From: Minisyncoccia bacterium
GTDB taxonomy: Bacteria > Patescibacteriota > Minisyncoccia > Phycocordibacterales > UBA9973
DNA length: 64,000 bases
Direction of reading: 5' to 3'
Assembly (NCBI GenBank): GCA_041737125.1
Contig: JBGSSJ010000012.1
Coordinates: 2,637 to 66,636 of the forward strand
A program made the translations under genes and the position numbers. Positions 36,745 through 61,800 of this stretch are shown here, one piece after another (position 1 is the stretch's first letter; every line of letters begins with the position of its first letter). Under the pieces are notes generated by a model. It was not told where the DNA came from, ran no database searches, and worked only from the letters and a program-made list of their open reading frames with translations.

Positions 36745-39576
36745 CTATACCACGATATTCACCAACCTCCCTTTCACATATATAACCCTCTTTACTTCCC
36801 TACCTTCTATCCATGGCATTATTACCTTGTCTTCTAATGCTTGTTTTTTGATTATTTCTTCATTCATATCTGAGTCTATCATCATCTCTGTACGCACTTT
36901 ACCATTAACTTGAACAACTATTTTGAAATTGCTGTCTATAACTTTCTTCTTATCCCACTTTGGCCACTTCGAGACATGTATGGATTTCTTACTAATCCAA
37001 AGCTCTTCAGTTATATGCGGAGCGAATGGTGAGAGTATCTGCAGAAATAATTCAAAATCTTTCTTTGATATACTTTTCGTCTTCTCTACTTCATTAATGA
37101 AAACCATCATTGCAGATATAGCAGTATTGAAACTCATAGACTCAATATCTTCTGTAACTTTCTTGATTGTTTTATGGAGAAGTGTTTCTAATTCTTTATC
37201 CGTCTTACTTGCAAAACTATTACCACTAATACGCCAAACTTTCTCCAAGAATCTTCTGGAGCCTATAATACTCTCAGTACTCCAGGACACTGCTTGATCG
37301 AATGGCCCTATGAACATCTCATATATACGTAAAGTATCAGCCCCGTATAGCTTTACTATATCTTTCGGGTCAATTGTATTACCTACTGATTTAGACATTT
37401 TTACTCCTCCCTCGGCAAGTATCATGCCATGGGAAGTGCGCTTCATATATGGCTCACTTGTAGGGACAAGCTTCAAATCATATAAGAACTTATGCCAGAA
37501 GCGAGAGTACAGTAAGTGCAGTGTCGTATGCTCCATACCACCGTTATACCAATCTACACCATTCTTCATCCAAGCCCGGAGAGCCTTCTTTGATGCGAGT
37601 TCTTTATTATTCTTCGGATCTGTGTACCTTAGGAAGTACCATGAGCTCCCTGCCCAGTTCGGCATTGTGTCAGTCTCCCTTTTGGCTTTGCCTTTACACT
37701 TTGGGCACTTTGTATTGACCCATTTATGCATGATAGCAAGTGGACTCTCGCCATTATCTGTTGGCACATAAGACTTCACTTTTGGTAAAGTTACCGGTAA
37801 ATCTTTCTCTGGTACAGGGACATAACCGCACTTTTCGCAGTGTATTATAGGTATTGGTTCACCCCAGTACCTCTGACGGGAGAATATCCAATCACGAAGT
37901 TTGTATTTTGTTACAATTTTACCACCAACTGCTTTCGTAATTTCTTTTTGAGCATCTACGTTTGATAAATCATTAAACTTACCGGAATTCACTAATATAC
38001 CTTCGTTTGTATAAGCTTGATCTTTCCCCAACATATTATTCCAGAAAATTACAGCTTCCTCTTTATCGATAATTTTTTCTACTTCTTCTTTAGTAAGCCA
38101 TACTATGTCATGTAAATTCTTCTCATTGTCACTTGTATCTTCTTTCTTTCCATCTATTAATTCAAAATATGCTCCTACTACATTTGCCCATCTATTCTCT
38201 TTTTTGTGAGGTGCATAGAATTGTGCATGAGCTCTACCCAATGTACTTATGAATTTTATATTCTGGTATCCAGTTTCTTCTCTTATTTCACGAGCACCAG
38301 CAATATGAGGATCTTCACCATCAGTTCCACCTATTACGAAAGTCTTCCAATTCTGAGTCTTCCACATTAAGCACAGATACTTATCTTCTGACCAATGCTT
38401 CACTATAGATACAATAGTATCTCTTTTTACAAAAGGTTGATCTTTCCTTATTGCACTCTCACCTTCAGTTGTTATAAAAAGTGGGGCGACAACTTGGCGA
38501 ATCTCTTGATTATATTTCTTCGCAAATAGGAAATCACGTTCATCGTGTGCAGGCACAGCCATAACAGCACCAGTACCATAATTCACCAATACATAATCTG
38601 CAATCCATACAGGTACTTCTTCCCAATTTGCAGGATTTATAGCTTTAATACCTTTCACTTCAACCCCAGTCTTTTCTTTGTCTTCTGCGGTGCGATCGAG
38701 TTCTGACTTTTTCTTTACATCTAAAATATATTTCTCTACTTCATTCCAATTTGAAATTTGTGGTTTCAGTTTATTAACTAATTCATGTTCAGGTGCAAGA
38801 ACAACATAGGTCACACCAAAAAGTGTATCGGCTCTTGTTGTAAATACTTTAATTTTCTCTGGAGAATTTTTTATAGAAAATTCTATTTCACTTCCTTCAC
38901 TCTTCCCTATCCAGTTCCTTTGTTGAATTTTTATCTTCTCTAAATAATCCACATCATCTAGATCTTTATCTAGTCTATCTGCATACTTAGTAATGGCTAG
39001 CATCCATTGCTCTTTCTCCCTCTTCTCTGTATCTCCACCACAGCGCTCACATTTGCCATTTACCACTTCTTCATTGGCAAGGCCTATCTTACAATTCAAG
39101 CACCAGTTTATAAAGGTCTTCGACTTATAAGCCAAACCCTTTTTATACATTTGAAGGAAGATCCACTGTGTCCACTTATAATATTTCGGATCAGTAGTAT
39201 TTACTTCACGTGACCAGTCGAAAGAGAATCCAATGGATTTAAGTTGCTTACGGAACATATCAGTATTCTGTTTGGTTACTTTCTCTGGCTGTATACCTGT
39301 CTTTATTGCGTAATTCTCTGTAGGTAAGCCGAAGGCATCCCAGCCTATTGGGTAGAGAACGTTGTAGCCTTCCATTCTGCGCTTCCTTGAAATTATATCC
39401 ATCGCAGTATTCGAGCGTATGTGGCCCACATGAAGTCCCGCTCCAGATGGGTATGGGAATTCTATAAGTCCGTAGAACCTTTTACCTTTGCCTCCGTTCT
39501 TTGCATGATAAATTTTCTTTTTATCCCAAGCCGCTTGATGTTTCTTTTCAATTTTATTATGGTCGTAGTTTTTCAT
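36745..39576 (-). CDS. leuS: Leucyl-tRNA synthetase with an inserted Nudix-hydrolase-like domain
   Basis: 943 aa; HVGH and KMSKS class I motifs; editing-domain motifs TTRADT and GTGAVMAVPAHDERD; conserved RDWIFSRQRYWGEPIPI. A ~134-aa insertion between the editing domain and the RDW block carries a Nudix box. Confidence 0.85.
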   Translation of the reverse strand: MKNYDHNKIEKKHQAAWDKKKIYHAKNGGKGKRFYGLIEFPYPSGAGLHVGHIRSNTAMDIISRKRRMEGYNVLYPIGWDAFGLPTENYAIKTGIQPEKVTKQNTDMFRKQLKSIGFSFDWSREVNTTDPKYYKWTQWIFLQMYKKGLAYKSKTFINWCLNCKIGLANEEVVNGKCERCGGDTEKREKEQWMLAITKYADRLDKDLDDVDYLEKIKIQQRNWIGKSEGSEIEFSIKNSPEKIKVFTTRADTLFGVTYVVLAPEHELVNKLKPQISNWNEVEKYILDVKKKSELDRTAEDKEKTGVEVKGIKAINPANWEEVPVWIADYVLVNYGTGAVMAVPAHDERDFLFAKKYNQEIRQVVAPLFITTEGESAIRKDQPFVKRDTIVSIVKHWSEDKYLCLMWKTQNWKTFVIGGTDGEDPHIAGAREIREETGYQNIKFISTLGRAHAQFYAPHKKENRWANVVGAYFELIDGKKEDTSDNEKNLHDIVWLTKEEVEKIIDKEEAVIFWNNMLGKDQAYTNEGILVNSGKFNDLSNVDAQKEITKAVGGKIVTKYKLRDWIFSRQRYWGEPIPIIHCEKCGYVPVPEKDLPVTLPKVKSYVPTDNGESPLAIMHKWVNTKCPKCKGKAKRETDTMPNWAGSSWYFLRYTDPKNNKELASKKALRAWMKNGVDWYNGGMEHTTLHLLYSRFWHKFLYDLKLVPTSEPYMKRTSHGMILAEGGVKMSKSVGNTIDPKDIVKLYGADTLRIYEMFIGPFDQAVSWSTESIIGSRRFLEKVWRISGNSFASKTDKELETLLHKTIKKVTEDIESMSFNTAISAMMVFINEVEKTKSISKKDFELFLQILSPFAPHITEELWISKKSIHVSKWPKWDKKKVIDSNFKIVVQVNGKVRTEMMIDSDMNEEIIKKQALEDKVIMPWIEGREVKRVIYVKGRLVNIVV
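38029..38430 (-). other. Nudix-hydrolase-like domain inserted in LeuRS (aa ~383-516); Nudix box at nt ~38263..38331
   Basis: GGTDGEDPHIAGAREIREETGY matches G-x4/5-E-x7-REUxEExGU (Nudix signature with one spacing deviation), flanked by beta-strand-like sequence typical of the Nudix fold. Confidence 0.6.
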
Positions 39577-40185: not shown

Positions 40186-40731
40186 ATGGAACATCTTACG
40201 AAGAAATCCGAAGCAACGCTCGGGCATGCAGCAGCGAATGCTACTAGGTGGATAGGCTCTACCAGATCCCTAATCATCCACACTATCCTATTTGCAGGAG
40301 CTTTTTCTTTAGTATTCTTTGGTTTTGAATTTGATAAAATCCTCCTTGTGGTAACGACTATTGTATCTCTCGAAGCTATATATCTATCTATCTTCATCCA
40401 AATAAGTGTAAACAATCAAGCTAAGCACTTGGAAGAAGTGGCTGAAGATGTCGGTGAAATCCAGGAGGATGTCGAAGGAATTGAGAAAGATATCGATGAG
40501 ATTCAGGAAGACGTGGATGAAATCCAGGAAGATGTGGAAGGTATTGAGAAAGATATCGATGAGATTCAGGAAGACGTGGATGAAATCCAGGAAGATGTAA
40601 GCGAAGAAGATGAGGAAGAAACAATTATAAAACAAGATGAGGCTATGCTCTCTCGCATTGAGAATACACTACAAATACTTATAAAAGATATAGAAGACCT
40701 AAAGAAGCAGCAAGAAAATAAAAACAAGTAA
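40186..40731 (+). CDS. DUF1003-like membrane protein with a C-terminal acidic tandem-repeat/coiled-coil tail
   Basis: 181 aa; two TM helices flanking an SxxxQNRQ-like region (ISVNNQAKH), then EIQEDVEGIEKDIDEIQEDVD repeated. Confidence 0.4.
   Translation: MEHLTKKSEATLGHAAANATRWIGSTRSLIIHTILFAGAFSLVFFGFEFDKILLVVTTIVSLEAIYLSIFIQISVNNQAKHLEEVAEDVGEIQEDVEGIEKDIDEIQEDVDEIQEDVEGIEKDIDEIQEDVDEIQEDVSEEDEEETIIKQDEAMLSRIENTLQILIKDIEDLKKQQENKNK
40456..40600 (+). repeat. 63-bp (21-codon) in-frame tandem repeat, ~2.3 copies, encoding EIQEDVEGIEKDIDEIQEDVD
   Basis: GAAATCCAGGAGGATGTCGAAGGAATTGAGAAAGATATCGATGAGATTCAGGAAGACGTGGAT is repeated with a few synonymous changes. Confidence 0.8.
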
Positions 40732-44681: not shown

Positions 44682-46178
44682 TTATATGGACTTAATTTGT
44701 TCTTTCTTGTGATCTTCGATAGCTTTATCTACTTCATCTAGATCACCTTCTATGGCTTCTTTAATTTCTTTTTCTTCTTTGGATAGAATGCGAGTATGGC
44801 GAGTATTTTGTAATATTTCCAGATGTTTCTCTAGGCGCTTTTTTAACAAAAGAAGTATTTTTGAATGGTCACCTCTAACAAGAGCACTGCGAACTATAAT
44901 TTTCTTGTGGAGCCTATCATATTGACGTCCGAGCTTAAATGCACCAATAATCAAAACTATTACTAGTACGATAATTAAATATATTACAGGCACATCAACT
45001 GCCAACATGTTGATAGTGTATGGATCCTTCGCAGGTGCAAGTGGTTGTAATGGTTGTACTTGCTCTACTGGTGCGATAGTTGCAGTGAAAATTCCAACTG
45101 ATTCCACACTGTTACCTGCGCGATCAAATGCTACTAATTTCACAGTATGGTTCCCCGCTATACTATAAGGAAGGCTGTAGTTGCCATCAACAAAATCTGC
45201 ATAATCCACCTTCTTTACCAATACATCATTTATGTAAATTTCATAATAATCTAATCCTGAAGTTTCATCTATGATATCAGCATTTATGTTGAGGACTTTC
45301 TTAGTATCATCATAGATAAAGGTAACATCATTCTTCTTCGGAATAGTAGTATCTATTCTTGCTATATATGTACTAGTCGGACCCCATTTCCCATCTTTCT
45401 GTGCGCGTACTTTGAAGTACCAAATTCCATCTTTCAAGTTTTTCACAGACCTTTCGCTTGTTGCAGGGCTTATTGTCACGCGAGGAACACCCGCAATATT
45501 ACTATCAATACCTGTTTGTACAGAAGTTATCCCTGTTGGTAATTTCCATTTGAATATTGGATTATTATCCTTATACCACAATTCCTGAGATGGATGAGTG
45601 AGTGATGTCACATTTAATGTGATGAGTGATGGTTGTGGTGCGGGTACGTCAGCAACAACCGGCTCCTCCTTTTGCACTATAGAGAGAGTCTTGCCTGTTT
45701 TACTATTTAAGACATCAGTACCAAACCCATCATCCGCACGAACAGCAGAGTCAGAGAAGATTAAGTCAGCCTGGCCAGCTTTCTTTGCTTTCACAACGAA
45801 AGAGAGTGCAGTGCCACTTGAGCCATTGAATCCCGGAGTAGGGATACCTCCATTGAAAGTAATAATTCCACTAACATTCGAATATGCAGGCTCCTCTACC
45901 CACAAGGAGAATACTGAGCCTCCTTTATTTATAGATACTACCTCAAGTAAATCACTTGGATATATAATTTTCGCTTCGGCATTATTGATCGGTACACCTT
46001 CTGAATTTATCACTACTGATAGTGTCGTTATACCTCCAGGCGAAAGACTGGTCGAAGAAGAATTAATTTTAAGTGTAGCCGCGTCTACAGTACTTGATAC
46101 AAAGAATGAAATAAGTAGCAGGCAAAAGAATGCTAATTTAGTTTTTAGTAGATTTTTTATATCCATAGAAGATCCCAC
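44682..46178 (-). CDS. Secreted, C-terminally membrane-anchored protein with an N-terminal cohesin-like domain, beta-sandwich repeats and a cytoplasmic coiled-coil tail
   Basis: 498 aa; signal peptide; N-terminal ~140 aa (TLKINSSS...GGITTLSVVINSEGVPINNAEAKIIYPSDLLEVV...SLWVEEPAY) is paralogous to the upstream 219-aa protein; TM VIYLIIVLVIVLIIGAF near the C-terminus; overlaps the upstream gene by 41 nt. Confidence 0.45.
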   Translation of the reverse strand: MGSSMDIKNLLKTKLAFFCLLLISFFVSSTVDAATLKINSSSTSLSPGGITTLSVVINSEGVPINNAEAKIIYPSDLLEVVSINKGGSVFSLWVEEPAYSNVSGIITFNGGIPTPGFNGSSGTALSFVVKAKKAGQADLIFSDSAVRADDGFGTDVLNSKTGKTLSIVQKEEPVVADVPAPQPSLITLNVTSLTHPSQELWYKDNNPIFKWKLPTGITSVQTGIDSNIAGVPRVTISPATSERSVKNLKDGIWYFKVRAQKDGKWGPTSTYIARIDTTIPKKNDVTFIYDDTKKVLNINADIIDETSGLDYYEIYINDVLVKKVDYADFVDGNYSLPYSIAGNHTVKLVAFDRAGNSVESVGIFTATIAPVEQVQPLQPLAPAKDPYTINMLAVDVPVIYLIIVLVIVLIIGAFKLGRQYDRLHKKIIVRSALVRGDHSKILLLLKKRLEKHLEILQNTRHTRILSKEEKEIKEAIEGDLDEVDKAIEDHKKEQIKSI

Positions 46179-46797
46179 CCAACAAAATAATTACTAATAA
46201 TATTATAACATTGTTATTCATACTAAATCCAGGGAAAATTGTCTTCTCTTCTGTCGGTTCTTCTATTTTACCATCAACTTCTTCTGTAGTAATTTGTGAA
46301 TCTTTTACCACAAGATTTAAAGACATCGATTTTACTATAGTTGATTCTTCTGTCCCCTTTCCATCATTTAAATATGTCTTCACTCCACTCCATGTCATGT
46401 CTATATTACCTGACACTGCAGTACGTAGGTGTAAGGTCAAAACGAGGCCTTCTTTTGCGAGTCCCTCAGGAGTACCACCTACAAAACGAACCGTCTTTCC
46501 CTTCGAATTATATACTGGTTCTACCGGCCACATAGAGAGAGCTGAGCCTTGTTTACTTACTTCTACTGACAAGGAGTCGGCAATAGAGCCTTGTAGAGAC
46601 ACAGTTCCTTCGATAACATTTAAATTCTTCCCTTGTGGATCTATACGTACCTCTACCACTGTTGTAGTATCCCCATCTTTGCTAGTAGGTACCACTTTAT
46701 AGCTTAGTTGGGCTGCCAGTAAATCCTGTGGTACTACGCACAACAAAAAGCTGATTATAAATGCGTATGCTATATGTGATGAGAATATTTTATACAT
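46138..46797 (-). CDS. Secreted, C-terminally membrane-anchored protein with a cohesin-like domain
   Basis: 219 aa; signal peptide; ~130-aa beta-rich domain (KVVPTS...VVEVRIDPQGKNLNVIEGTVSLQGSIADSLSVEV...SMWPVEPVY); Glu/Thr linker; C-terminal TM VIILLVIILLGGIFYGY; begins 7 nt after the giant gene stop. Confidence 0.45.
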   Translation of the reverse strand: MYKIFSSHIAYAFIISFLLCVVPQDLLAAQLSYKVVPTSKDGDTTTVVEVRIDPQGKNLNVIEGTVSLQGSIADSLSVEVSKQGSALSMWPVEPVYNSKGKTVRFVGGTPEGLAKEGLVLTLHLRTAVSGNIDMTWSGVKTYLNDGKGTEESTIVKSMSLNLVVKDSQITTEEVDGKIEEPTEEKTIFPGFSMNNNVIILLVIILLGGIFYGYKKSTKN

Positions 46798-46803
46798 AAT
46801 TAA

Positions 46804-49800
46804 TTATTGTTTTTTAAAGGCGATAGGTTTCTTGCCCCATTGATAAAGAAGGATAGAAAAGTCGACTGAATTTACTTGTTTGTCTAGATTTATATCAGCA
46901 CAAGGGTTATTAAATGGGGATGTTGTTTTCCAGAAAGAAAGCATTATAGAGAAGTCTACTGAATTTACTTTTCCATCATGGTTTAAGTCTGCACCAATAC
47001 ATGCATTCGTTAAAATAGGTGCTACAGATGCCCCACCTCCACCACCTCCCCCTCCACCAGGCGGTGTGACTGAAGTATCGGTACTCGCTGCAAATGACTG
47101 AGATGCAGTTGAGGAATCTGATCCGAACAATACATCCAAATGGAAGTAATAATCACCAGCAATAGGTACAGTCGAGTTCAATGTTGTATCAAAATTTTCT
47201 AATGGCTGAATTAATTTCGCCGCAGTAGAACTAAATATATCATTCCCTCCTCCGCATGTATTGAGTACTGAATCAGTAACACACCATGTGTATTGATATT
47301 CATATGCAGTAGATCCTTCATTCGTAATACGAACTGCAGTAGATATACTTGGAACAATCAAATCAGTAAAGCTCTGAATCAATACTTGCGCAGGAGATCC
47401 AGGAGTACCACTTACTTCACCTGAAGCGACACTCGTGCCAATAATATTTTTCGCATATACTCGGAAATCATACGAGTTATTATTCGCAAGTCCTGTAACT
47501 GTAACAGAAGGAGTAGTACTTACACTATCAGCAAATACAGTCCATGTACCCAATGTCGTAAGTTTATATTCTATAACATAATCAGTTATCGCAGAGCCTC
47601 CATTGGAAAGTGGTGCTGACCAAGACAAGCTTACACTACTATCATCAATGATTGCTGCTAAGTTAGTCGGCGCCCCTGGGACACTCGCAGGAGTTACTCC
47701 AGAACTTGATCCAGAAGACACACCCGTACCGAGAGCATTTGTAGCAGTGACACTAAATGTATAAGTGACTCCATTCGTAAGCCCTGTGAATATTGCAGTC
47801 GTTGTCGCGCTTGTCATTGTAGCGCCGCCTGGACTTGCCGTAATAGTATATGAAGTTATCGGTGAGCCGCCATTTGAAGCTGGAGCAGACCAAGACACAA
47901 TAACGCTCGTATCCGCTGCTTCACCAGCTACGTTCGTAGGAGCTCCTGGAACAGTTGCAGGAGTTACGGAATTACTTGCACTAGATGCAACACTTGTCCC
48001 AACTGCATTAGTTGCAGTGAAAGTGAATGTATATGTCACTCCATTTGTAAGTCCTGTCACAGTGATCGGTGAAGTACCTCCAGTTGCAGTATGTCCACCA
48101 ATGTTTGAAGTAATAGTATACGAAGTGACTGCTGATCCTCCATTGTTCACTGGAGGTGTGAATGTAATAGTTGCTTCGCCATTCCCAGCAACTGCAGTTA
48201 TGCTTGTAGGCGCATCAGGTACAGTCGCAGGCACAATTGAGTTACTTGTTCCTGAAGAAGTACTTGTTCCCATAATATTTGTTGCAGTCACAGTGAATGT
48301 ATAGGTTGTACCATTAGTAAGTCCTGTGACTGTGATTGGTGAACTACCTCCAGTAGCAGTATGACCTCCAACATTTGAAGTGACTGTGTATGAAGTTATC
48401 GCAGATCCACCGTTATTTACTGGAGGTGTGAATGTGATAGTAGCTTCACCATTACCTCGAACTGCAGTTATAGATGTCGGTGCATCCGGAACAGTCGCCG
48501 GAGTTACAGAATTAGTTGTCGCTGAAGCAATTCCTGTACCCACACTATTCGTCGCAGTCACAGTAAATGTATATGTCACTCCATTTGTAAGTCCTGTGAC
48601 TGTGATTGGTGAACTACCTCCAGTTGCAGTATGACCTAAGTTTGAAGTAACTGTATAGATTGTTATGGCAGAGCCGCCATTTGAAGATGGAGCAGTGAAT
48701 GTAATTGTTGCTTGTCCATTACCTGCTGTTGCAGTACCGATAGTAGGAGCTCCTGGTACACTGACCGGAGTTACTGAATTACTAGAACTTGATGCAACAC
48801 TAGTCCCCACATCATTTGTGGCAGTCACTGTGAATGTATATGTCACTCCATTCGTAAGTCCGACAACTACCAAAGGAGATGACCCTCCTGTTGCTGTATG
48901 ACCAAGGTTTGAAGTTACTGTGTAGCTTGTGATTGCTGATCCGCCATTATTTACTGGGGGTGTAAATGTGATAACTGCTTCGCCATTGCCCGCTGTTGCA
49001 GTCCCTATAATAGGAGCATCAGGAACTGTAGCTGGAGTAATAGTATTACTTGGATCTGAAGCGACACTAGTACCTACCGCATTTGTCGCAGTCACTGTAA
49101 ATGTATACGAGACACTATTTGTAAGCCCCGTGACTGTAATTGGAGAGCCGTTACTTGTTGCAGTAAATCCTCCAGGACTTGAAGTCACTGTATAACTTGT
49201 GATTGTAGATCCGCCATTATTCACAGGAGGTGTAAATGTAATTGTCGCTTCACCATTACCCCTGACTGCAATTATAGAAGTAGGTGCGTCAGGAACAGTC
49301 GCCGGAGTTACTGCATTACTTGCAGTTGATGCAACACTCGTGCCTACGGCATTGGTTGCAGTCACAGTAAATGTATATGCGACTCCGTTAGTAAGTCCTG
49401 TGACTACAAGTGGTGAACTACCACCTGTAGTAAAGTGTCCTCCAATACTTGAGGTCACTGTGTATGAAGTTATTGCAGATCCGCCATTTGATATAGGTGC
49501 GTCAAATGTGATAGTTGCTTGTCCATTACTAGAAACTGCAACTATATTTGTCGGTGCATCTGGAACAGTCGCCGGAGTTACAGCGTTGGTCGTGCCTGAA
49601 GCAACACTTGTACCATTTGCATTTGTGGCAGTCACAGTGAACGTGTACGTTGTACCGTTTGTAAGTCCAGTGATTGTTATCGGAGATGTCCCACCACTTG
49701 TAGTAAATCCTCCCGGACTTGAAGTGACTGTGTAGCTTGTAATTACAGAACCACCATTATTTACTGGAGGTGTGAATGTGATAGTTGCTTGACCGTTACC

Positions 49801-52800
49801 CGCTGTTGCAGTGCCTATGATAGGTGCGTCCGGAATCGTTGAAGGAACCACACTATTACTTGTAGCAGATGAGGCACCTGTTCCTGCACTATTCGTAGCA
49901 GTCACTGTAAATGTATACGTTACTCCGTTTGTAAGACCTGTGACTGTGATTGGTGAAGTACCTCCGGTTGCAGTGTGACCAAGATTTGAAGTAACTGTGT
50001 ATGAAGTTACCACAGACCCTCCATTATTTAATGGAGGTGTGAATGTAATAACTGCTTCGCCATTGCCTCCAGTTGCTGTACCTATTGTAGGTGCATCTGG
50101 AACTGTTGCAGGAGTTACAGCATTGGTTGTCGCAGAGGCAACGCTTGTACCATTTGCATTTGTTGCGGTCACAGTAAATGTGTATGAAGTACCGTTTGTA
50201 AGTCCGGTTACCGTGATTGGTGACGTACCTCCTGTAGCAGTGTGTCCAAGATTTGAAGTAACTGTGTAGCTTGTGATTGCAGAGCCACCATTATTTACTG
50301 GAGGTGTGAATGTAATAGTTGCTTGACCATTACCTGGTGTGGCAGTACCAATGATCGGGGCATCTGGAATAGTTTGATAACTAAAGTAAGGATACGATGA
50401 TGCTTCATCGATGGACCAAATAAGTGAAGTGAAATCCCATCCGACAAAAGTAGCTTCTTCTTTCATTTCTGTACTAGTCTTCCCCGTTATCCCAGCTGGA
50501 TCAACACCATTTCCGACACCGTCCCCAGTTGCATATCCTGATGTTGTTGTGTCCCAATAATTTGAAACATATGTCCCTCCAAGTGGATTCCCAGTTACTC
50601 CACCAGTGTACTGAAGTGAAGCTGCACCTGCTGCGCCCGTTCCACCTGTTGAACCTCCAGATCCGCCTACTCCAGCACTTCCGCCTGTACCACCTGTCGC
50701 ACCGTTTGTTTTCGTTCCAGATGGTGCTCCTGTTGCATATGTATTAGTAATAATTGTCGTATTATGACTTCCTAATAGTCCACCCACATACGCAGACCCT
50801 CCTGCACCACCGGCACCACCGGCACCACCATTTCCATTTACTCCAAGTGCTCCTCCTCCTTGAGCGCCTCCTGCGCCGCCCACTCCACCAACACCACCCA
50901 CTCCTGGAGTACCCCCAATTGCAGTAATAGACCCACGCTGGTAGGCATTTGTAATCGCTCCCGTATTTTGCCCGACTAATCCTCCGACAAACACAGCATC
51001 ACCCGCACCTCCTGCACCACCGGCTCCACCGATTGTTCCATTTCCACCATTTCCAGAAACACCTGATCCACCAGCACCTCCTTCACCGCCAGTACCTCCG
51101 ACTGCTCCCGCTGCACCCACACCACCTGTTACTAAAATATTTCCTGATGCATAACTTGTATTAAAATTCCCAGTAGTGATATTCGCTCCCACAAGTCCAC
51201 CCACATAACTTGCGCCAGAAGCACCACCAGCACCTCCTCCTATTGATGCTCCTCCTGCACCACCTGCAAGTGTTCCTCCATTTCCTCCTCTTCCTCCTGC
51301 GCCAGATGCCCCAGCACTTCCACCGTTTCCACCAACAGTAGTGACGTCGCCGGCTGACCAAGAAAATTGAATAATGCCGGCTGTAAAATTATATCCAACG
51401 AGTCCTCCGGCATACAAAGCTCCACCTGCGCCTCCTGCAGCCGTAGTACCACTTCCGCCACCTGCGCCTCCTGCGCCAGAGACACCACCGGTTCCCCCAT
51501 TTCCACTCAATCCTGCAGCCCCACCCACGCCACCAGTGGCTCCATTTACGCTAACATCTCCTAATGCATAGGTAGTATACAATGTTCCAATATTGTATCC
51601 TGCAAATCCTCCACCGTACGTGATACCTCCTGCAGCACCAACAGTTCTTGCACCTGAAGCTCCACCGGTACCACCAGTACCAGAGACATCTCCTGCTCCA
51701 CCTGTCCCACCATTTCCTCCCGCACCACCGACACCTCCTGTGCCCCCTACAAGAGTGAGCGATCCTGTAGAGTAAGAATCCTTAATCGTTCGTGCGGTAT
51801 TATTGAATCCAGTAAATCCTCCACCATAAGCAAGACCTGCGGCACCAGCTGCCCCACCGTTTCCAGCTACTCCACCGACACCTCCGTTGCCACTTACACC
51901 AACTGACCCAGAGGCACCATTGCCTCCAGTTCCACCAGCTCCTCCGGTGCCAGTAATACCGACAACATTACTTGTTGTATATGAAGAGAGAAAAATATTT
52001 CCATCGTTATACCCGACAAATCCACCAGCATACATAACACCTGATGCGCCACCTGCTCCACCTACCCAACCTATGCCACCAGCACTTGATGGGCTTGATA
52101 CTCCTCCATTTCCACCAATTCCACCATTGCCTCCATTCCCGCTTGTTGATGAGACCGTAGTACCAAGCGAATAACTAGTAAGAATTGTATTTGTCGTATT
52201 GACATTAAATCCTGCTAGTCCTCCAGAAGCTGAGACTCCACCTCCACCTGCGGGACCTCCGGCCCCACCAGTTCCTCCTATGTGTGAAGTTCCAAGCGAA
52301 CCATTTCCTCCAGTACCACCATTTGATCCATGTGCTCCATTACCCCCGATCGCAGTCACAGAACCAGTTGCATATGAATTTAAAATAATTCCTGTTGCCG
52401 CATTATTTCCGACAAGTCCACCAGCATACCCCAAACCACCTGCAGCACCACTCCCCCCTGCGCCTCCTGTCGCAGCTGTACCACCAGAGACTGTACTACT
52501 TGCCCCACCCGAAGCTCCATTACTTGATACTCCGGCATTCCCTCCGATAGAAGAGACAGCACCTGTTGCATAAGAACTTCCTTCTATAATTCCTGTATTA
52601 TTTCCGATCAATCCACCAGCATAGCTTGCGCCTCCTGTACCTGCGGTACCACCGGCTCCTCCTACTCCTCCGAGCGCACCAGATCCTGCAATTCCTCCAG
52701 CAACACTTGTAGCTGCATTACCACCTGTACCTCCTGTCGATGTAACATTACGCGTAGCATAACTTGTAGTAATAGTAACAGTACTTCCTAGCTGAGCAAT

Positions 52801-55800
52801 TAATCCTCCTGCGTAAGAAACTCCTCCTGCACCACCTGCACCAGCTGCGACACTCGCTCCTCCTGCACCACCAGCACCACCAGCACCAGGAATCCCAGAG
52901 GCTCTTCCATTTCCACCAAGTCCGCCAAACGACTCCACTGTATTGCCAGTCGAATATGCATGGAAATAATTACTTCCTCCTCCTGCCGCCATATTACTAT
53001 ACCCCACAAGTCCTCCAGCATTTGATTCACCTCCTATACCTCCTGACCCACCTGCACCAGAGGCACCACCTGCTGCACTTGTTGCGCCGTTTGCTCCATT
53101 TCCTCCGATATTTCCTGTACTTCCTGTGCCCCCAGTACTACTAACATTTCCTGTTGCATATGAATTAATAATGTCACTAAGTCCAGCACCTATTCTATTA
53201 TTTCCGATCAATCCACCAGCATAACTTGCACCTCCCACTGCACCAACCACAGCGCCACCACCTGTGCCACCTGCTACTGTTGATCGTGATGCGCCACCGT
53301 TCCCTGATATTCCTGAAATTCCAGCTGTTCCTCCAGTAGAGGAAACATTTCCTGTTGCATATGTATCTAAATAATTACTTGCACCGGTCGTGAAGTTACT
53401 GAAACCTACGAGCCCTCCAGCATTTGCTTCACCTCCGACACCAGCTAATCCTGCCAATGCACCAGGCGCACCTGCATGAGTACTTGTTCCTAGAGAACCA
53501 TCTCCACCATTGCCACCAAGACCTCCATTTCCCCCGAGCCCACCAACAACAGTGATGCTTCCTGTTGCATACGAATCACTAATTCGTACTATTTGTGTTG
53601 TTCCAGTCATACGACCAACAAGTCCTCCTCCGTATGCTAGCCCACCAGCTCCACCTGCGCCACCTGCTCCACCGAGTGCAGAGACTCCACTTGAAATAGT
53701 ACTACCAGAAGTACCTCCAGTCCCCCCATTACCACCAGTTCCGCCAGTACCAGCAGTTGCAGAAAAAGAAATTGACGAATAAGAATTATCTCGAATAATT
53801 CCGAGATTGTCTCCCACCAATCCTCCTACTGCTCGTACACCACCTGTACCACCAATACCTCCAAGAGCTCCAACTCCGCCATTAAATGCCCCTACACCAC
53901 TTCCTCCATTACCACCATTTCCGCCTGTTCCACCACTTTGTTCAAAACCTGAAATAGAAATCAGTGTTGAATATGAGTCTGATACTGCACCTGTTGATGT
54001 GCTTGATCCTAAAAGTCCTCCAATAAATGATCCTTGTGAAGCTCCACCTGCGCCGCCTGCACCACCTGCGCCACCTGCTCCACCTGTTGCCAATCCTGAA
54101 CCTCCATCCCCTCCATTACCTCCATTACCAGGAGTTCCGCCTGTCACCACAATATTACCTGCGCCGGATCCACTATCGACGGTTGCATGCGAAGAAATGA
54201 CATCAGACGTTGTGGATCCAACAAGACCCCCTGCATGAATTATACTTGATTGGTTTCCAGCACCACCAGCACTTCCTGCTGTTCCAGAGTTGATACTTGC
54301 ACTTATTCCATGTGCACCATTGCCTCCATTTCCTCCAGTAATATTGAGAGTTGTTTTTGAGTATGAGTTTGCTTGAATAATTCCAGTGCTATATCCTACT
54401 AATCCTCCAACATAGATACCTCCACCAAAACTTCCTACACCACCTGTTCCATTTAATCCATCAAGCGCTGTGCCCGTACCAATACCACCAATACCACCTA
54501 GAGCACCATGCCCCGCAGAACCACCCACCACTACGATAGTTCCTGTTTCTGCATATGATGAGGTAATTGTTCCTAAACTACTTTGCCCTACAAGTCCTCC
54601 TACGTGCAATGCCGTAGAGGCGGTTGTCGCACCTGAACCACCAGCACCACCATTTCCTGCAACACCTCCGATATGATTCGTACCAAGAGATCCATCACCG
54701 CCATTTCCGCCCTGTCCTCCGTTCCCGCCATTACCTCCTGTTCCTGTCATACTGACTGTCGCATAGGAACTATTAATAATTCCATTTGCTGTGTTGTTTC
54801 TTCCTACTAATCCTCCCAGTGAAAGACTTCCCCCTACGCCTCCTGCTCCACCGATACCACCAGCTGCAGCAGTTCCATTTGTTATAGCTCCAGAAGCACC
54901 AGCAGCGCCTCCTATTCCACCATTTCCTCCAGCTCCTGAAACCGCAACGAGAGATCCTGTTGTATGATAACTTGTTTCAATTCCAATAGAAGAATCCCCT
55001 ACTAATCCTCCTGTAAAGTTTGCACCACCTGCACCACCTATAGCTCCTGCACCACCTGCACCACCTATAGCAGCTCCTCCTCCAGATCCTCCTGAGCCTC
55101 CATTACCACCCGTTCCCCCTATACCAGATGTACCAGAAACAGTATTACTAGAGTATGCATTAATTATCTCACCTATATTTGAAAATCCGACAAGTCCTCC
55201 TGCATACGAGGCGCCTCCAACACCACCAACTCCTCCTATAGCTCCTGCTCCACCGACAGAATTATTTCCACCTACACCGCCTGATCCTGCATTTCCTCCT
55301 GCACCTGCATTTCCTGCACTTGCCATCACTGTACCTGTGGCATATGAATTATCAATATATGCATTTGTTGTAGTAAATCCGATAAGTCCTCCACTATACG
55401 CAGAGCCGCCAGTACCACCGGCTCCACCTACTGCTCCTGCTCCACCAAATATATTATTTATAGTTCCGTCACCACCATTTCCACCACTTGCACCATCCCC
55501 CCCCGTAGCTCCATTTACAGTAACTGAACCTGTTGCATATGAATTTCTTACTACGTATCCAGCACCGGCATTATATCCGACAAGTCCTCCACCATATATT
55601 GCATTACCAGATCCTCCGGCTCCTCCTGCTCCTCCAATAGAACCATTAGCACCTGATGTTCCGGTCGTTCCATTAGCTGCGACTCCACCATTTGCAACGA
55701 CATCATTTGTAGAATGTACAGTATCAATAAGAACATTACTAAGGGAGACATACCCTACAGCACCTCCTGCATGAACTGCACCTGTTACCCACCCAGCACC

Positions 55801-58800
55801 ACCTGCCCCACTTGTACCATTTCTTCCACTTCCTCCCCCACCAGTTCCTCCTGTAGCGCCTGTTCCACCAGATCCTCCAACACCAGCAAAAGTCACAGTA
55901 ATAGTTCCACCACTTGCTTGTGATGAAGAAATATTACCATTACCTTGGCCTGCTATCCCACCTATATATACTGCACCACCTACGTTTCCGGAGCCACCGT
56001 TTCCACCAACACCTCCAGCATGTCCACCAGTTCCAAGTGACCCATTTCCACCAGTACCACCATCTCCTCCCATACCTGCACTTGCTCCATTTCCAGTAAG
56101 ACTTCCTATAACACTCAGATTTGAAATAACTCCAGAAAAGTTAACACCAAAAAATGCAGTATTATCACCAGTAATACCTCCGATATATGTCGCACCTCCT
56201 ATTCCACCTGGACCACCGGTTCCACCACTTGCTGCAGTACCTCCGGCAATATTTCCAGATGCACCAGCCGTGCCACCTACCCCACCGTTTCCACCAACTC
56301 CTCCACTTACTGTAATAGTTGTAATTGTATATGTAAGATCTTTAATCACTCCAGCATTAGACCCCGTTATTCCTCCGCCGTACGCAGCTCCTCCAGTGCC
56401 TCCTGTAACACCCACAGCACCAGTTCCTCCTATTGCTCCACTTCCACCAGCACCACCAGGTGCTCCACCTCCGCCTATTCCACCTGCACCCCCAGTTGAA
56501 GTAATTGTCCCTATAGTATGTGGAGTAGAAAGTGTCGTACTCACCAATCCATTAAACCCAATAATACCTCCAGCATAACTAGCCCCACCGACACCACCGA
56601 AACCACCATTGCCCACATATGCAACACCTGCAAGACCTGCGACTCCCGGACCACTTGATCCTGGAGTACCGCTTGCTCCAGAATTTCCGCCGGCTCCTCC
56701 TATAGCTTCAATATTTCCAGAAGCATATGATCCAGAAGCAACAGTTGCAATATTGTATCCGACAACACCTCCACTTGAAGCAAGACCTCCAGCTCCACCA
56801 GAATTACCTAATGTTGCTGCACCTCCCGCAACAGCATTACTTGAATTACCACCATTTGCGCCTGATCCTCCTAAACCTCCAACTCCTCCGATGGCAGTTG
56901 CATTCCCTGTTGCATATGAACCACCAAGAACAATTCCATTTGTTGAATTATATCCCAGCAATCCACCTGCATATCCTGCACCCGCAGCGCCCCCGATTCC
57001 AAGACTTCCACCACCAGAAGCTCCGATAGTTCCACTTCCACCTGTTCCACCTGCGCTACCGATACCACCTGTTCCACCAGTTGAGATAGTGTTGCCCGTA
57101 GCATATGAATTATTGATAACACCGTTACTAAACCCAACAAGTCCTCCAGCAGAAGAATAACCTGCAGTAGCACTCGTCGCTCCATTTCCTCCTATTGCAC
57201 GGACTCCACCTGCACCACCTGCGCCGGCATTCCCAGAATTTCCACCAATAGAAAACACATCAACTTCTGAGTATGAATAAATAACACTTCCAGAAGAATT
57301 TTGTCCTACAATACCACCTGCAAAAGATAGCCCTCCTGCAGCGCCAGCTATTCCCGCTCCGCCAGCACCACCTATAGCATTTGTTCCACCCGCTCCGCCA
57401 CTGGACCCATCTGCACCATTACCACCAGAGCCTGCAGTGGAATAAACTGACCCTATCTCTGAATATGAATTAGATATTGTTGAAGTATTAAATCCTGCGA
57501 TTCCCCCTGAGTATGCAGTACCACCCACTCCACCTGCGCCACCAACAGAACCAGCAGCACCGACATGACTTGCACCACCTAGAGACCCGTTCCCTGCTGC
57601 GCCTCCAATTGCGCCACTTTTACCAGAAGATGCAGTCGCAGTAACTACACTTGTCGTATAATAATTTGTAATAAAATTCGCATTATGTCCTACAACACCA
57701 CCAGCATATGCAAGTGCACCTGCACCTCCTGCACCACCTGCACCACCTGATGCAGCGATTCCTGAATTAACTGTTGCAGTTGTTGCACCTCCTGCACCTC
57801 CTGCACCACCATCACCTGGAGTTCCACTCGTTGATGTTACTGCACCAGATGTAAGAATTAATGTTTCTGAAGTAATAACTCCAGTACTTTGACCCGCAAC
57901 TCCTCCTGCAAAAGAAGCTCCTCCAACTCCTCCTGCCGCGCCTGCGCCTCCTGCGCCGCCGATGGCATTCGTTCCGCCTGCAGCACCGGCACCGCCTGCA
58001 CCACCATTTCCTCCTGCACCACCAGTAACAATGACATCACCTGTTGAATAACTAGATGCTATCGGTCCCAAAATATATTGTCCTACCACTCCTCCTCCAT
58101 ATCCGGCACCGCCTATACCACCGACAGCTCCTGCACCACCTACTCCACCTGTCACACCTACAGCACCTACTCCTCCATTTCCTCCGTTTCCACCTATACC
58201 TCCAGCACCACCAGTTGCATTTACTGTTCCTGTTCCGTAAGAAAATAGTACTTGTCCGTTAAGATTGTAGCCAATAACACCACCAACATATGCAGCACCT
58301 CCAACTGCTCCAGCACTTCCTGCAATACCAGCAAGACTAGTGCCACCATTTCCACCAAGTGCTCCATTTCCACCTGAGCCACCTGTACCAGTTACTGTGC
58401 TCGTTGAATAATCATTTGTTAATGTGGACCCTGAGTTATATCCAATAACACCTCCCACATATGCAGCACCTCCCACAGTTGCAATAGCACCTGCTCCACT
58501 AAGAGCTCCAGCACCACCAGCTCCACCGGCACCGGCATTCCCACCAGCACCTGCAGTTCCAGTTATAGTCCCTGTTGTGTGATAACTATGACTTGTTACA
58601 TTTGTATTTACACCAACTACACCTCCAATATAAACATCACCTGCAGCACCCGCATTGGCACCTGCAATTCCAGGCAAACCAATAAGACCTGAAACTCCTG
58701 CACCACCACTCCCACCTCCGCCACCTAGTCCTATTACTTGGTTTTCAGAATATGAATATTGAATTATCCCTGTATTACGTCCTGCGAGACCACCAACCTG

Positions 58801-61800
58801 TGCGAAAGTTACAAATGCTGATCCTCCTACACCAGAGGCACCGCCTGCACCTGAAGCTCCGCTAGCCCCCTTTACTCCACCTGAGCCCCCTGTACCACCA
58901 GCACCACCTGAGCCAGCAACTCCGGTAATAACTCCTGTTGTTGCATATGAAGAAAGAATAACTCCAGCATTAAGTCCAGCAAGACCACCAACATACGCTC
59001 CACCTCCTGCACCTCCTGCACCAGCAGCACCTCCTGCACCTCCTGCATGTGCTGCACCAAGAGAAGCACTTCCTCCTGCGCCGCCTGATTGTCCATTTTT
59101 ACCATTTGATCCAGTTCCGGTCACATTGCTTGTTGAATAGTTTGAGCCTATATCTCCGATAATAATTCCAGCTGAAGCATTCTGTCCTACAAGTCCTCCA
59201 GCATGCGCAAGTGACCCTGCACCACCTGCGCCGCCTATTCCACCTATAGCAGCAGTTCCTGTTGTAGCAGTCGCACTTGCACCACCTATACCACCGGTTG
59301 AACTAGTTCCACTTTCTCCACCGAATGCTTCTACATCTCCTGTTGCATATGAAGCGCCTTCAATAATTCCTGAATTATTCCCCACTAAACCACCAACATA
59401 AGTGACTCCACCGAGAGCACCCGCTGCTCCTGCTCCACCTGCTCCACCAATCGCTGCGCCTCCGCCGGCACCCCCAACACCTGCTGTTCCCGCATTTCCC
59501 CCTGTTCCTCCAGTTCCAGTAACAGAACCTGTCGTATATGAAGCGTCAATTACTCCTGTATTAATCCAACCAGCAAGTCCGCCAACATAACTAATACCTC
59601 CCACGCCTGGAGCACCAGCTGCACCACCTGCTCCACCGATACCTGTTCCAGAGTTTGTTCCACCATTACCAGCTGCACCTGAGTCACCACCTGTACCACC
59701 TACACCGATAACTGTCGCCGAACTACTTGATGTTGTTATATTTCCTTGAGCAGAGAAACCGACAAGTCCACCTACATATGATATTGCTCCCGCACCACCT
59801 GCAAGAGTTCCACCTCCCGCACCTGCGACTGTTGCGCCACTTGTTGTATTTCCACCAGCACCACCCGAACCTGATGCACCACCTGCACCACCAGTCCCTG
59901 TAATAAAACCTGATACACTTGCACTGGTGATAGTTCCTGCATTATATCCAGCAAGCCCACCGACGTAGACGATAGACCCCGCTCCGCCAATTGTTCCTGT
60001 ACCTCCCGCTGTAGGTGTTACTCCAGATGTTCCTGTGGCACCATTTGAACCTGTCGCGCCAGATACTCCGACAGCCGTTATAGAAGCATTCGTAAGTACT
60101 ACATTTTCAATTAGGTTTGTTGTATATCCAAAAAGTCCGACATATGCGAGTGTTGTTGTATTAATAAAAAGATTGCTTATCGCATAATTGTCACCATTAA
60201 AATTCCCTGTAAATGGAGTTGTATTTGTTCCGATTGGAATAAATCCGACCCCTGCATTCCATCCTGAAGTCACACTTGCATTAATTGCATTATTTAATTT
60301 GTATGAACTAGCAAGATTAGTTCTCGCTCCTTGTAATCCGTACACATCAAAAACCATAAATGGATCAGTGCTGATTCCCATCCCTGTATATCGTCGAAAT
60401 GTTCCTGCACTTACTGAAAAATTTCCTGTTACAGAAAATGTATCGTTGAGTGGATCAGGTGCAGTAAAGGTAGCTGCGGAAGTTTGAATGTAATCACCAG
60501 ACAACCCACCAGAATTATTTATTATAAGATTTGCATTCTGAGTAATAGTTCCTGTATATCCAGATATAGTAAGAGAGCCTATAGTAAAAGCTTGATCTAT
60601 AATTGCACCATTTGAACCTGTATCAAAAATAACGTTCGTTTCAAAATCAGGTATAGAAGCTCCGCTTGCACCACCAGATGTGGCAGACCAACTAGATGTA
60701 CTACTCCAATTTGCACCAGCTGCTCCTACCCAATATCTTGTAGTGATAGGGTCAACAACTTGATCAATGGTAAGGTCTCCAATAATTTTCAAATCAAATG
60801 TTTCTAAAGGAGTAGAGAGCCCTGATAAAATTATCCTATATTTACCATCTTCAGCAATGACAGGGAAAGCAGCGATAAATTCTCCATCAACAGTATAGAC
60901 TTCAACTGTCACAGCACTACCATCATGAGTAGGCTTTGCATACAAAGTTATATCATTTCCATTATCGAGAAACGTATCAAACGTAACTCGTACAAATTGT
61001 CCGTCTAGAATATCTGCAAAAATTTGATCTCTATATTTTATTGCATCGAAAATATCTTCAAGAATATTTTTATCAGAATCCAGACGAATACCATCTGAAA
61101 TAAAAATAATTTCAAATGTCTGAGTAGAGAGGTGCGGTACTACCCAACTCACGTGATCTATATATTCATCTTCGTCATCGTCGTACGAGACGAATTCCAT
61201 ATTTTCATCTCCATTATTGGTCCATTTTATTTTTATTTGATCTTCTTGTCCTACTTTAAATATTTCTGAAATTTCTATACGGACCGGAACGTCAACCATA
61301 GGAGCTACAGCATCTTGCTCGGGAGTAGACGAAACTACTACTACTTTACCGTTATCTATTACTTGCTCCTCGATAGTTGGTAGGCGACTCGTTTCTTCGC
61401 CAAGTGATGGAGGTATTTCTTCGCTAATTGCTTCCAATGCACTTGAGCCTCCACTATTATCTATATCTTCATTCTTCTCTTCTTCGCTCTCTATAATAAT
61501 TTCTGTTACTACTTCTGGTTCTTCAATTATCTCAGTACTATCTTCATTTACTATTTCTATTACTTCCTCTTCAGCTACTTCAGGCTCGGAAATTGTTTCT
61601 ATAATATCTTCTGTTGTTACTTCTTGTTCTACAGTTACTTCTTCCGTATCTTCTATTATTTCTGTAACAGGTAGCACAGCTTCGATGGTGGGATCATTTG
61701 TAGTAACCTGAATCATTTCTACAGTTTCTTCATTGGTTGTGGATTCAATTATTACTTCATCTTGCGCATCAACAGTAAAATAAAAACTACACAATAAAAA

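Follow-up and report, generated by a model that had tools for sequence, protein, structure and literature searches.

The window analysed here is a stretch of 64,000 nucleotides (nt) from an uncultured, ultra-small Patescibacterium, a Minisyncoccia bacterium (assembly GCA_041737125.1, contig JBGSSJ010000012.1). On its minus strand lies a giant open reading frame (ORF) for a surface fibre ending with a dockerin, and directly downstream are the genes of two cohesin-like membrane proteins, which we call CohA and CohB. These three genes probably comprise a surface-anchoring cassette. Patescibacteria represent a large share of bacterial diversity, and most of them are believed to be attached to other cells; to our knowledge, the means by which they fasten large surface proteins to the envelope are largely unknown. 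The locus suggests a concrete answer that can be tested, namely a putative plug-and-socket pair encoded side by side, which is found in hundreds of genomes and combined with interchangeable passengers. The genes of the cassette are arranged as follows.

46804..61854, minus strand: giant ORF of the fibre, 5,016 residues (ORF list and translation)
46138..46797, minus strand: CohA, 219 residues; its start codon lies 6 nt past the fibre stop, and the gene overlaps the CohB start
44682..46178, minus strand: CohB, 498 residues, with the probable start at 46166

The fibre and its C-terminal dockerin

From the N- to the C-terminus, the fibre consists of a signal peptide, an acidic region, a head, GLUG repeats, 11 FN3 domains, an X domain, a Gly linker and the dockerin. 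Its last 221 residues, called the tail below, were modelled with AlphaFold2 (AF2) from a 43-sequence alignment; model confidence is given as the predicted local distance difference test (pLDDT). The tail is composed of the following features.

47083..47394, minus strand: X domain, an immunoglobulin (Ig)-like beta-sandwich (AF2 strands at model residues 27-129, pLDDT about 90 or more)
47002..47082, minus strand: disordered Gly-rich linker (model residues 134-154, pLDDT <50)
47032..47058, minus strand: run of nine glycines (Gly9), residues 4933-4941, inside the linker
46807..47001, minus strand: dockerin (Ca loop 1, helix 1, Ca loop 2, helix 2), the last 65 residues (PF00404, PDB matches, AF2 and family conservation)
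46954..46989, minus strand: Ca loop 1, DLNHDGKVNSVD, residues 4956-4967
46939..46953, minus strand: FSIML after loop 1
46861..46896, minus strand: Ca loop 2, DINLDKQVNSVD, residues 4987-4998
46846..46860, minus strand: FSILL after loop 2

The fibre tail is a dockerin, a member of a known family; the translation ends with ...TPPGGGGGGGGGASVAPILTNACIGADLNHDGKVNSVDFSIMLSFWKTTSPFNNPCADINLDKQVNSVDFSILLYQWGKKPIAFKKQ, followed by the stop. An earlier note on this DNA had described two Ca-loop segments, each with FSI(M/L)L behind it, and both are present just as described: the loops start 31 residues apart, 19 residues separate them, and the interval 46807..47060 given for the module spans exactly the loops and the Gly9 stretch. 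The note had also proposed to inspect loop positions 1, 3, 5, 9 and 12 as Ca ligands, and these are occupied by D, N, D, N and D in both loops. Its assignment to the dockerins is borne out by the Pfam family Dockerin_1 (PF00404), which the tail matches far better than expected by chance: its score of 36.3 bits (E 6.6e-9, profile positions 3-52 of 57) exceeds the gathering threshold of 22.9, while the generic EF-hand_1 reaches only E 0.21. The NCBIfam model “GC-type dockerin” was rejected, with 18.4 bits against a cutoff of 29. The solved structures closest to the tail are the Clostridium thermocellum Cel48S/CelS dockerins (1daq, 2mte; E about 1e-4), followed by other type I dockerins. In the whole 64 kb, a six-frame regular-expression scan detected the Ca-loop pattern in these two loops only.

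The AF2 tail model contains a confident module at residues 157-215, in which helices 170-178 and 201-209 directly follow the loops (pLDDT about 90). The two halves of the dockerin are nearly symmetrical. The loops are strongly conserved: in 114 homologues, both loops can be recognised, and here the loop spacing is 31 in all cases, Ca positions 1, 3, 5 and 12 are conserved at 99-100%, and the DFSI following each loop is conserved at 100%. By analogy with the known cohesin–dockerin systems, both loops would bind Ca2+.

One cysteine stands 3 residues ahead of loop 1, and a second one stands 1 residue ahead of loop 2 (46897..47001). This pair co-varies in the 114 homologues (83 have both residues, 18 have neither and 13 have only one), which suggests that it may form a disulfide stapling the dockerin.

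The X domain carries an invariant motif, NEG..YEYxYxWC...N.CGGG.D, which includes two conserved cysteines. It invariably precedes the dockerin among the tail homologues, and it also occurs inside other large proteins lacking a dockerin; a fold search with this domain returned generic Ig-like sandwiches only, with no functional lead. In type II/III X–dockerin dyads, the X module and the dockerin form one rigid unit by direct packing; in the AF2 model, the X domain and the dockerin are set apart by 20-30 residues at pLDDT <50. The run of nine glycines, previously taken for a flexible hinge of this protein, is indeed present and lies in this low-confidence stretch, but it is not special to the gene: the Gly/Ser-rich linkers of the relatives vary in length, and their longest Gly runs comprise 3 to 20 residues. 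Gly9 is an example of the disordered linker that the whole family shares.

Upstream of the tail, the fibre has the following parts.

61765..61854, minus strand: Sec-type signal peptide, residues 1-30 (MSLCAFKYNKILSFLFAIFLLCSFYFTVDA, then Q), with a predicted cleavage (sequence reading and a Kyte-Doolittle window at residues 10-30)
61375..61764, minus strand: acidic low-complexity region rich in E, V, I and T, residues 31-160 (composition)
60055..61374, minus strand: N-terminal head region, residues 161-600 (BLASTP homology to the N-terminus of a 1,112-residue DUF2341 protein from the related locus L001)
50371..60054, minus strand: about 47 GLUG-motif units with Gly-rich spacers, then a cap segment (PF07581 and motif count)
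47395..50370, minus strand: eleven tandem FN3 domains of 89-90 residues each, residues 3829-4820 (Pfam fn3, E 4.8e-99, 11 stretches)

The signal peptide has the standard n-h-c layout with a VDA/Q cleavage-like site, and its residues 10-30 represent the sole hydrophobic segment of the fibre according to the Kyte-Doolittle analysis. Glu accounts for 24% of residues 31-190. In the BLASTP comparison with the DUF2341 protein, residues 161-369 are 45% identical (E 3e-61), and residues 371-491 form a second matching segment (E 3e-14); Pfam scans of the head region gave no family match. The GLUG region has a median period of 65 residues and contains 36% Gly. Its 161-residue pieces pass the family threshold (PF07581, 25.2 and 21.2 bits against a cutoff of 20.5), while its 1,000-residue pieces match no Pfam family, so that automated annotation would leave most of the giant protein blank. 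In the FN3 array, nine 270-nt units were detected at the DNA level, and this divergence (70% identity) makes a repeat-collapse artefact unlikely.

Conventional means of surface attachment were not found in the fibre, in agreement with the earlier note. The sorting signal LPXTG, searched as LP.T[GAN], occurs nowhere in the fibre, and no S-layer homology (SLH) domain was revealed by the Pfam scans, which covered the fibre apart from residues 3001-3516 inside the GLUG region.

Two cohesin-like membrane proteins

Had there been no cohesin-like protein anywhere in the genome, the dockerin proposal of the earlier note would by its own terms have been given up; two such proteins, both with membrane-protein features, are encoded directly behind the fibre gene. 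Their parts are listed below.

46303..46713, minus strand: cohesin-like domain of CohA, preceded by a signal peptide
about 46159..46224, minus strand: C-terminal transmembrane (TM) segment of CohA, between a short acidic stalk and a KKSTKN tail
45675..46079, minus strand: cohesin domain of CohB, preceded by a signal peptide
45078..45626, minus strand: two Ig-like domains of CohB
about 44904..44990, minus strand: TM segment of CohB
44685..44903, minus strand: cytoplasmic tail of CohB

The cohesin identity of CohB was decided by fold comparison. The PDB sequence searches with CohB alone and with a full-length ortholog profile gave no cohesin matches, and only domain-restricted profiles ranked cohesins first, although weakly. 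The AF2 model of CohB (mean pLDDT 83.6) includes a nine-stranded jelly-roll beta-sandwich superposable on solved cohesins. Foldseek matched the model to 2w1n, a cohesin+FN3 construct, with E 1.8e-12, and to 1g1k with a TM-score of 0.78. The orthologs add sequence evidence: Pfam Cohesin (PF00963) is found at E<=0.01 in 8 of 34 CohB orthologs (best E 3.5e-6), and one ortholog, P0085, is named “cohesin domain-containing protein” by NCBI. The Ig-like domains correspond to DUF7743/Big_13 in the orthologs.

CohA is a paralogue of the cohesin domain of CohB, with 25% identity over 162 residues (BLASTP, E 3e-9). When the CohA ortholog profile is compared to the PDB, Ruminococcus flavefaciens cohesins rank first, although weakly (E 0.018), and with a joint profile of the CohA and CohB cohesin domains they provide the top three matches (E 0.0017-0.088). 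Pfam Cohesin is matched by two of the 41 CohA orthologs, with the best E of 2.7e-11.

Each of the two proteins possesses a signal peptide and one C-terminal hydrophobic helix. CohA and CohB are both predicted to be type-I single-pass membrane proteins with an N-terminal extracellular cohesin-fold domain. CohB additionally has a conserved, charged, helical tail of ~70 residues behind the TM segment (residues about 426-498; AF2 helices 438-462 and 467-497) with the ortholog consensus LLKKRLEKHLEILQxTRHxRxLTKEEKxIKEAIExDLDExD. Such a cytoplasmic tail would be superfluous for a plain anchor, which suggests an intracellular partner or a signalling role.

Promoter and terminator scans did not rise above the shuffled expectation, and no terminator was found between the fibre, CohA and CohB genes.

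Conservation of the cassette and proposed anchoring of the fibre

GTDB was scanned with one genome per species, which revealed 367 loci encoding proteins related to the tail. The best 80 of these, together with three JGI loci and the window, composed the locus set, where 76 loci carry a dockerin ORF. Nearly all of the best 80 loci are labelled as Patescibacteria lineages, and the best match of the dockerin region in the species-representative genomes is 78% identical. The tail has more than 200 close homologues, most of them with precomputed PF00404 matches, and the named ones come from Pacebacteria, Kaiserbacteria, Nomurabacteria and the “Patescibacteria group”. A search with the tail among 1.8 billion representative proteins gave 314 clusters at E<=1e-10, and nearly every full-length match has the X–linker–dockerin unit at its C-terminus or a few residues from it.

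A same-strand cohesin-like gene is located downstream of the dockerin ORF in all 76 loci, and most of them have a second one. The gap from the dockerin stop to the cohesin start has a median of 3 nt and falls within -60..+25 nt in 73 of the 76 loci. A further dockerin-like ORF within +-10 kb was found in none of the loci examined. The proteins bearing the dockerin span from 258 to more than 3,650 residues, and their N-terminal parts are unrelated. About 20 relatives represent the same Gly-rich GLUG and FN3 giant, with more than 3,550 residues (a lower bound set by the 10-kb flank); the remaining dockerin proteins have 258-2,283 residues, and many of these consist of just a signal peptide, FN3, X and the dockerin, about 326 residues in all. 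What is conserved is the X–Gly–dockerin unit with CohA, usually accompanied by CohB; the passenger preceding this unit can be exchanged.

In locus L001, on a 657-kb Patescibacteria contig, a small dockerin protein is located in the ychF/leuS neighbourhood, as in the window. Its segment 5308..11872 encodes, in this order, the 1,112-residue DUF2341 protein, a 179-residue protein resembling the C-terminus of the DUF2341 protein, a 206-residue protein with a signal peptide and a TM segment, a 326-residue FN3–X–dockerin protein and a CohA of 294 residues. The N-terminus of the DUF2341 protein matches the head of the fibre; hence head and tail belong to separate genes in some lineages and to one gene here, which indicates a putative gene fusion or fission.

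Seven contigs with the cassette (L037, L038, L043, L048, L058, L073 and L076) are labelled “uncultured Gammaproteobacteria” in third-party assemblies. These labels, as well as the “Saccharibacteria” ones of many other contigs, look like binning or classification artefacts and are unsuitable for inferring the distribution of the cassette.

Dockerins and cohesins are the defining modules of cellulosomes, and the closest sequence and structure matches of the proteins studied are cellulosomal; one can suggest that the dockerin recruits the fibre into a polysaccharide-degrading scaffoldin complex. This enzyme assembly is highly improbable. Each downstream protein has one cohesin, hence there is no multi-cohesin scaffoldin, and a single dockerin is present in the 64-kb window, as in each related locus. 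No glycoside hydrolase or carbohydrate-binding module (CBM) family was found among the scanned fibre and neighbour proteins, and the host is a reduced-genome Patescibacterium. The cassette is not a cellulosome.

On the observed basis of the dockerin membership of the tail, the cohesin fold and membrane-protein features of its neighbours and their conserved adjacency, we consider it likely that, after Sec export, a membrane cohesin holds the GLUG/FN3 fibre by its C-terminal end through a non-covalent bond. All three proteins would be exported via the Sec pathway, and the C-terminal helices would keep CohA and CohB in the cytoplasmic membrane. The dockerin would fold round two Ca2+ ions and plug into a cohesin. 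Of the two candidates we favour CohA, which invariably lies next to the dockerin gene and is retained in loci lacking CohB. Tethered in this way, the fibre would expose its N-terminal head outward, presumably for contact with a host cell or substrate, and the flexible Gly linker would permit its free orientation. Since the cohesins sit in the cell's own membrane, the dockerin is most likely located at the cell-proximal base of the fibre; the earlier note had placed it at the tip, which is probably incorrect.

Several points weigh against this anchoring. The dockerin–cohesin interaction is deduced from family knowledge and gene adjacency. With Pfam Cohesin, the CohB of the window scores 13.6 bits, below the cutoff of 24.1 (E 0.08, profile positions 2-122 of 139), and the window CohA gives no match. 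One dockerin faces two cohesins, which leaves the stoichiometry and the true partner ambiguous. In a distance-matrix (mirror-tree) comparison, r amounted to 0.49 for dockerin–CohA, 0.38 for dockerin–CohB and 0.54 for X–CohA; as the value for the X domain is not lower than that for the dockerin, the signal represents shared phylogeny, and the comparison was rejected as evidence for a partner, having no dockerin-specific co-evolution component. Cleavage of the signal peptide is a prediction, and an uncleaved anchor would flip the orientation of the fibre. Finally, no functional annotation in the head/GLUG region backs an adhesive role.

The sub-threshold cohesins and the uninformative co-evolution test would also suit a different explanation, in which the tail is a Ca2+-stabilised structural or ligand module without a cohesin partner, CohA and CohB have an unrelated ligand, and the surface genes are merely clustered; many non-cellulosomal dockerin and cohesin modules are without a demonstrated partner (PMC9012536). 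We consider this unlikely because a cohesin-fold gene immediately follows the dockerin in 73 of the 76 loci over a wide range of Patescibacteria, despite the varying passenger, and because DFSI(L/M)L, the putative recognition helix, does not vary. Position 10 of the loops, the canonical dockerin specificity position, provides a further argument. It is hydrophobic (L/M in loop 1, V/M in loop 2) in five loci only, and the same five also differ in their cohesins, having a long CohA and no CohB, a coincidence that is confounded by phylogeny.

The orientation of the fibre may also be the reverse: the N-terminus would be held by an uncleaved signal anchor or otherwise, and the distal dockerin would bind cohesins on neighbour cells, leading to aggregation, or on the same cell, forming a loop. 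The only hydrophobic segment of the fibre is indeed N-terminal, and the near-symmetrical dockerin halves resemble those of dual-binding-mode dockerins. However, the signal peptide combines the n-h-c layout with a cleavage-like site, many homologues of 258-330 residues are too short to bridge cells although they have the same cohesin neighbours, and the tight operon coupling fits a cis-acting receptor. The reversed orientation is therefore quite improbable.

The proposed anchoring of the fibre by its base can be extended to a broader suggestion, that the X domain–poly-Gly–dockerin unit is a lineage-specific sorting tag with CohA/CohB as its dedicated membrane receptor, forming a general modular system of non-covalent surface display in Patescibacteria. 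We propose this generalisation tentatively and regard it as rather doubtful. If true, the display system would replace sortase and SLH anchoring and hold the giant adhesins which episymbionts use to contact their hosts, and CohB, through its conserved cytoplasmic tail, might link the events at the fibre to the cell interior.

Related systems and the surroundings of the cassette

The closest analogue of the cassette may be the Ruminococcus flavefaciens adhesin CttA, in which a C-terminal X–dockerin plugs into the cell-wall-anchored cohesin of ScaE; by this analogy, the cassette would work like the cell-anchoring arm of cellulosomes. The two systems differ in several respects. ScaE is anchored by sortase, whereas CohA and CohB have a C-terminal TM helix. 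The X module of CttA packs on the dockerin, while in the fibre a Gly linker predicted to be disordered separates the two, and the X domain also exists without a dockerin. The Clostridium thermocellum anchoring scaffoldins SdbA, OlpB, Orf2p, OlpA and OlpC are attached to the cell wall by SLH rather than by a membrane helix, and CohB adds to this type of protein a conserved cytoplasmic tail. Compared to the known anchoring scaffoldins, the cassette is also distinguished by its giant GLUG/FN3 passenger and the fixed operon order, dockerin then cohesin.

In relation to the clostridial type I pairs (Cel48S/CelS–CipA of C. thermocellum, Cel5A–CipC of Clostridium cellulolyticum), the passenger here is a giant non-enzymatic fibre, and each cohesin occurs alone in a membrane-anchored protein. 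At loop positions 10-11 the fibre has S-V, followed by the invariant DFSI(L/M)L, and the clostridial dockerins have S-T or A-L. The co-varying Cys pair is a further difference, and the host here is not cellulolytic.

Non-cellulosomal cohesin and dockerin modules are known from each of the three domains of life, and anaerobic methanotrophic (ANME) archaea have them in abundance (PMC9012536). The cases cited there from Peer et al. 2009 include the Clostridium perfringens GH84C/GH33 toxin complexes, Archaeoglobus fulgidus and ANME archaea. These represent scattered modules on enzymes, substrate-binding or S-layer proteins, in contrast to the fixed dockerin–cohesin operon with an X–Gly–dockerin tag in hundreds of genomes.

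The dockerin-type giants of Omnitrophota (10.1101/2023.11.21.568195) are similar to the fibre in being giant surface proteins of ultra-small bacteria with dockerin-like repeats and a proposed role in attachment. However, they contain many internal dockerin/EF-hand and thrombospondin repeats and their own C-terminal TM segment, whereas the fibre has a single terminal dockerin, no TM segment and separate cohesin receptors. Within Patescibacteria, the cultured Saccharibacterium Southlakia epibionticum has a dockerin-domain envelope protein, SEML1_0315, which is essential according to transposon sequencing (Tn-seq), and the paper makes no mention of a cohesin partner (PMC10633639). SEML1_0315 resembles the fibre in being a dockerin-bearing envelope protein in a Patescibacterium; if the proteins are homologous, the cassette may explain this essentiality. 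A literature search on dockerins and cohesins in Patescibacteria, incomplete in its coverage, found no description of a dockerin–CohA–CohB operon.

The anchoring proposed here would extend cohesin–dockerin biology from enzyme assembly to the membrane anchoring of giant fibres and would add a compact orthogonal cohesin–dockerin pair for protein engineering. The locus supplies defined constructs for binding assays.

The other genes of the window are ordinary chromosomal ones: mraW, PBP, Mur ligases, MurJ, aminoacyl-tRNA synthetases, LepA, YchF and a sigma factor. The best match of LepA is 95% identical, and its named relatives belong to “Patescibacteria group bacterium”. The leucyl-tRNA synthetase (36745..39576, minus strand) has 943 residues compared to 810 in the syntenic gene of L001, with an apparent insertion. 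An ORF of 181 residues at 40186..40731, plus strand, begins with a hydrophobic region and continues with an acidic repeat in exact duplicate, EIQEDVEGIEKDIDEIQEDVD.

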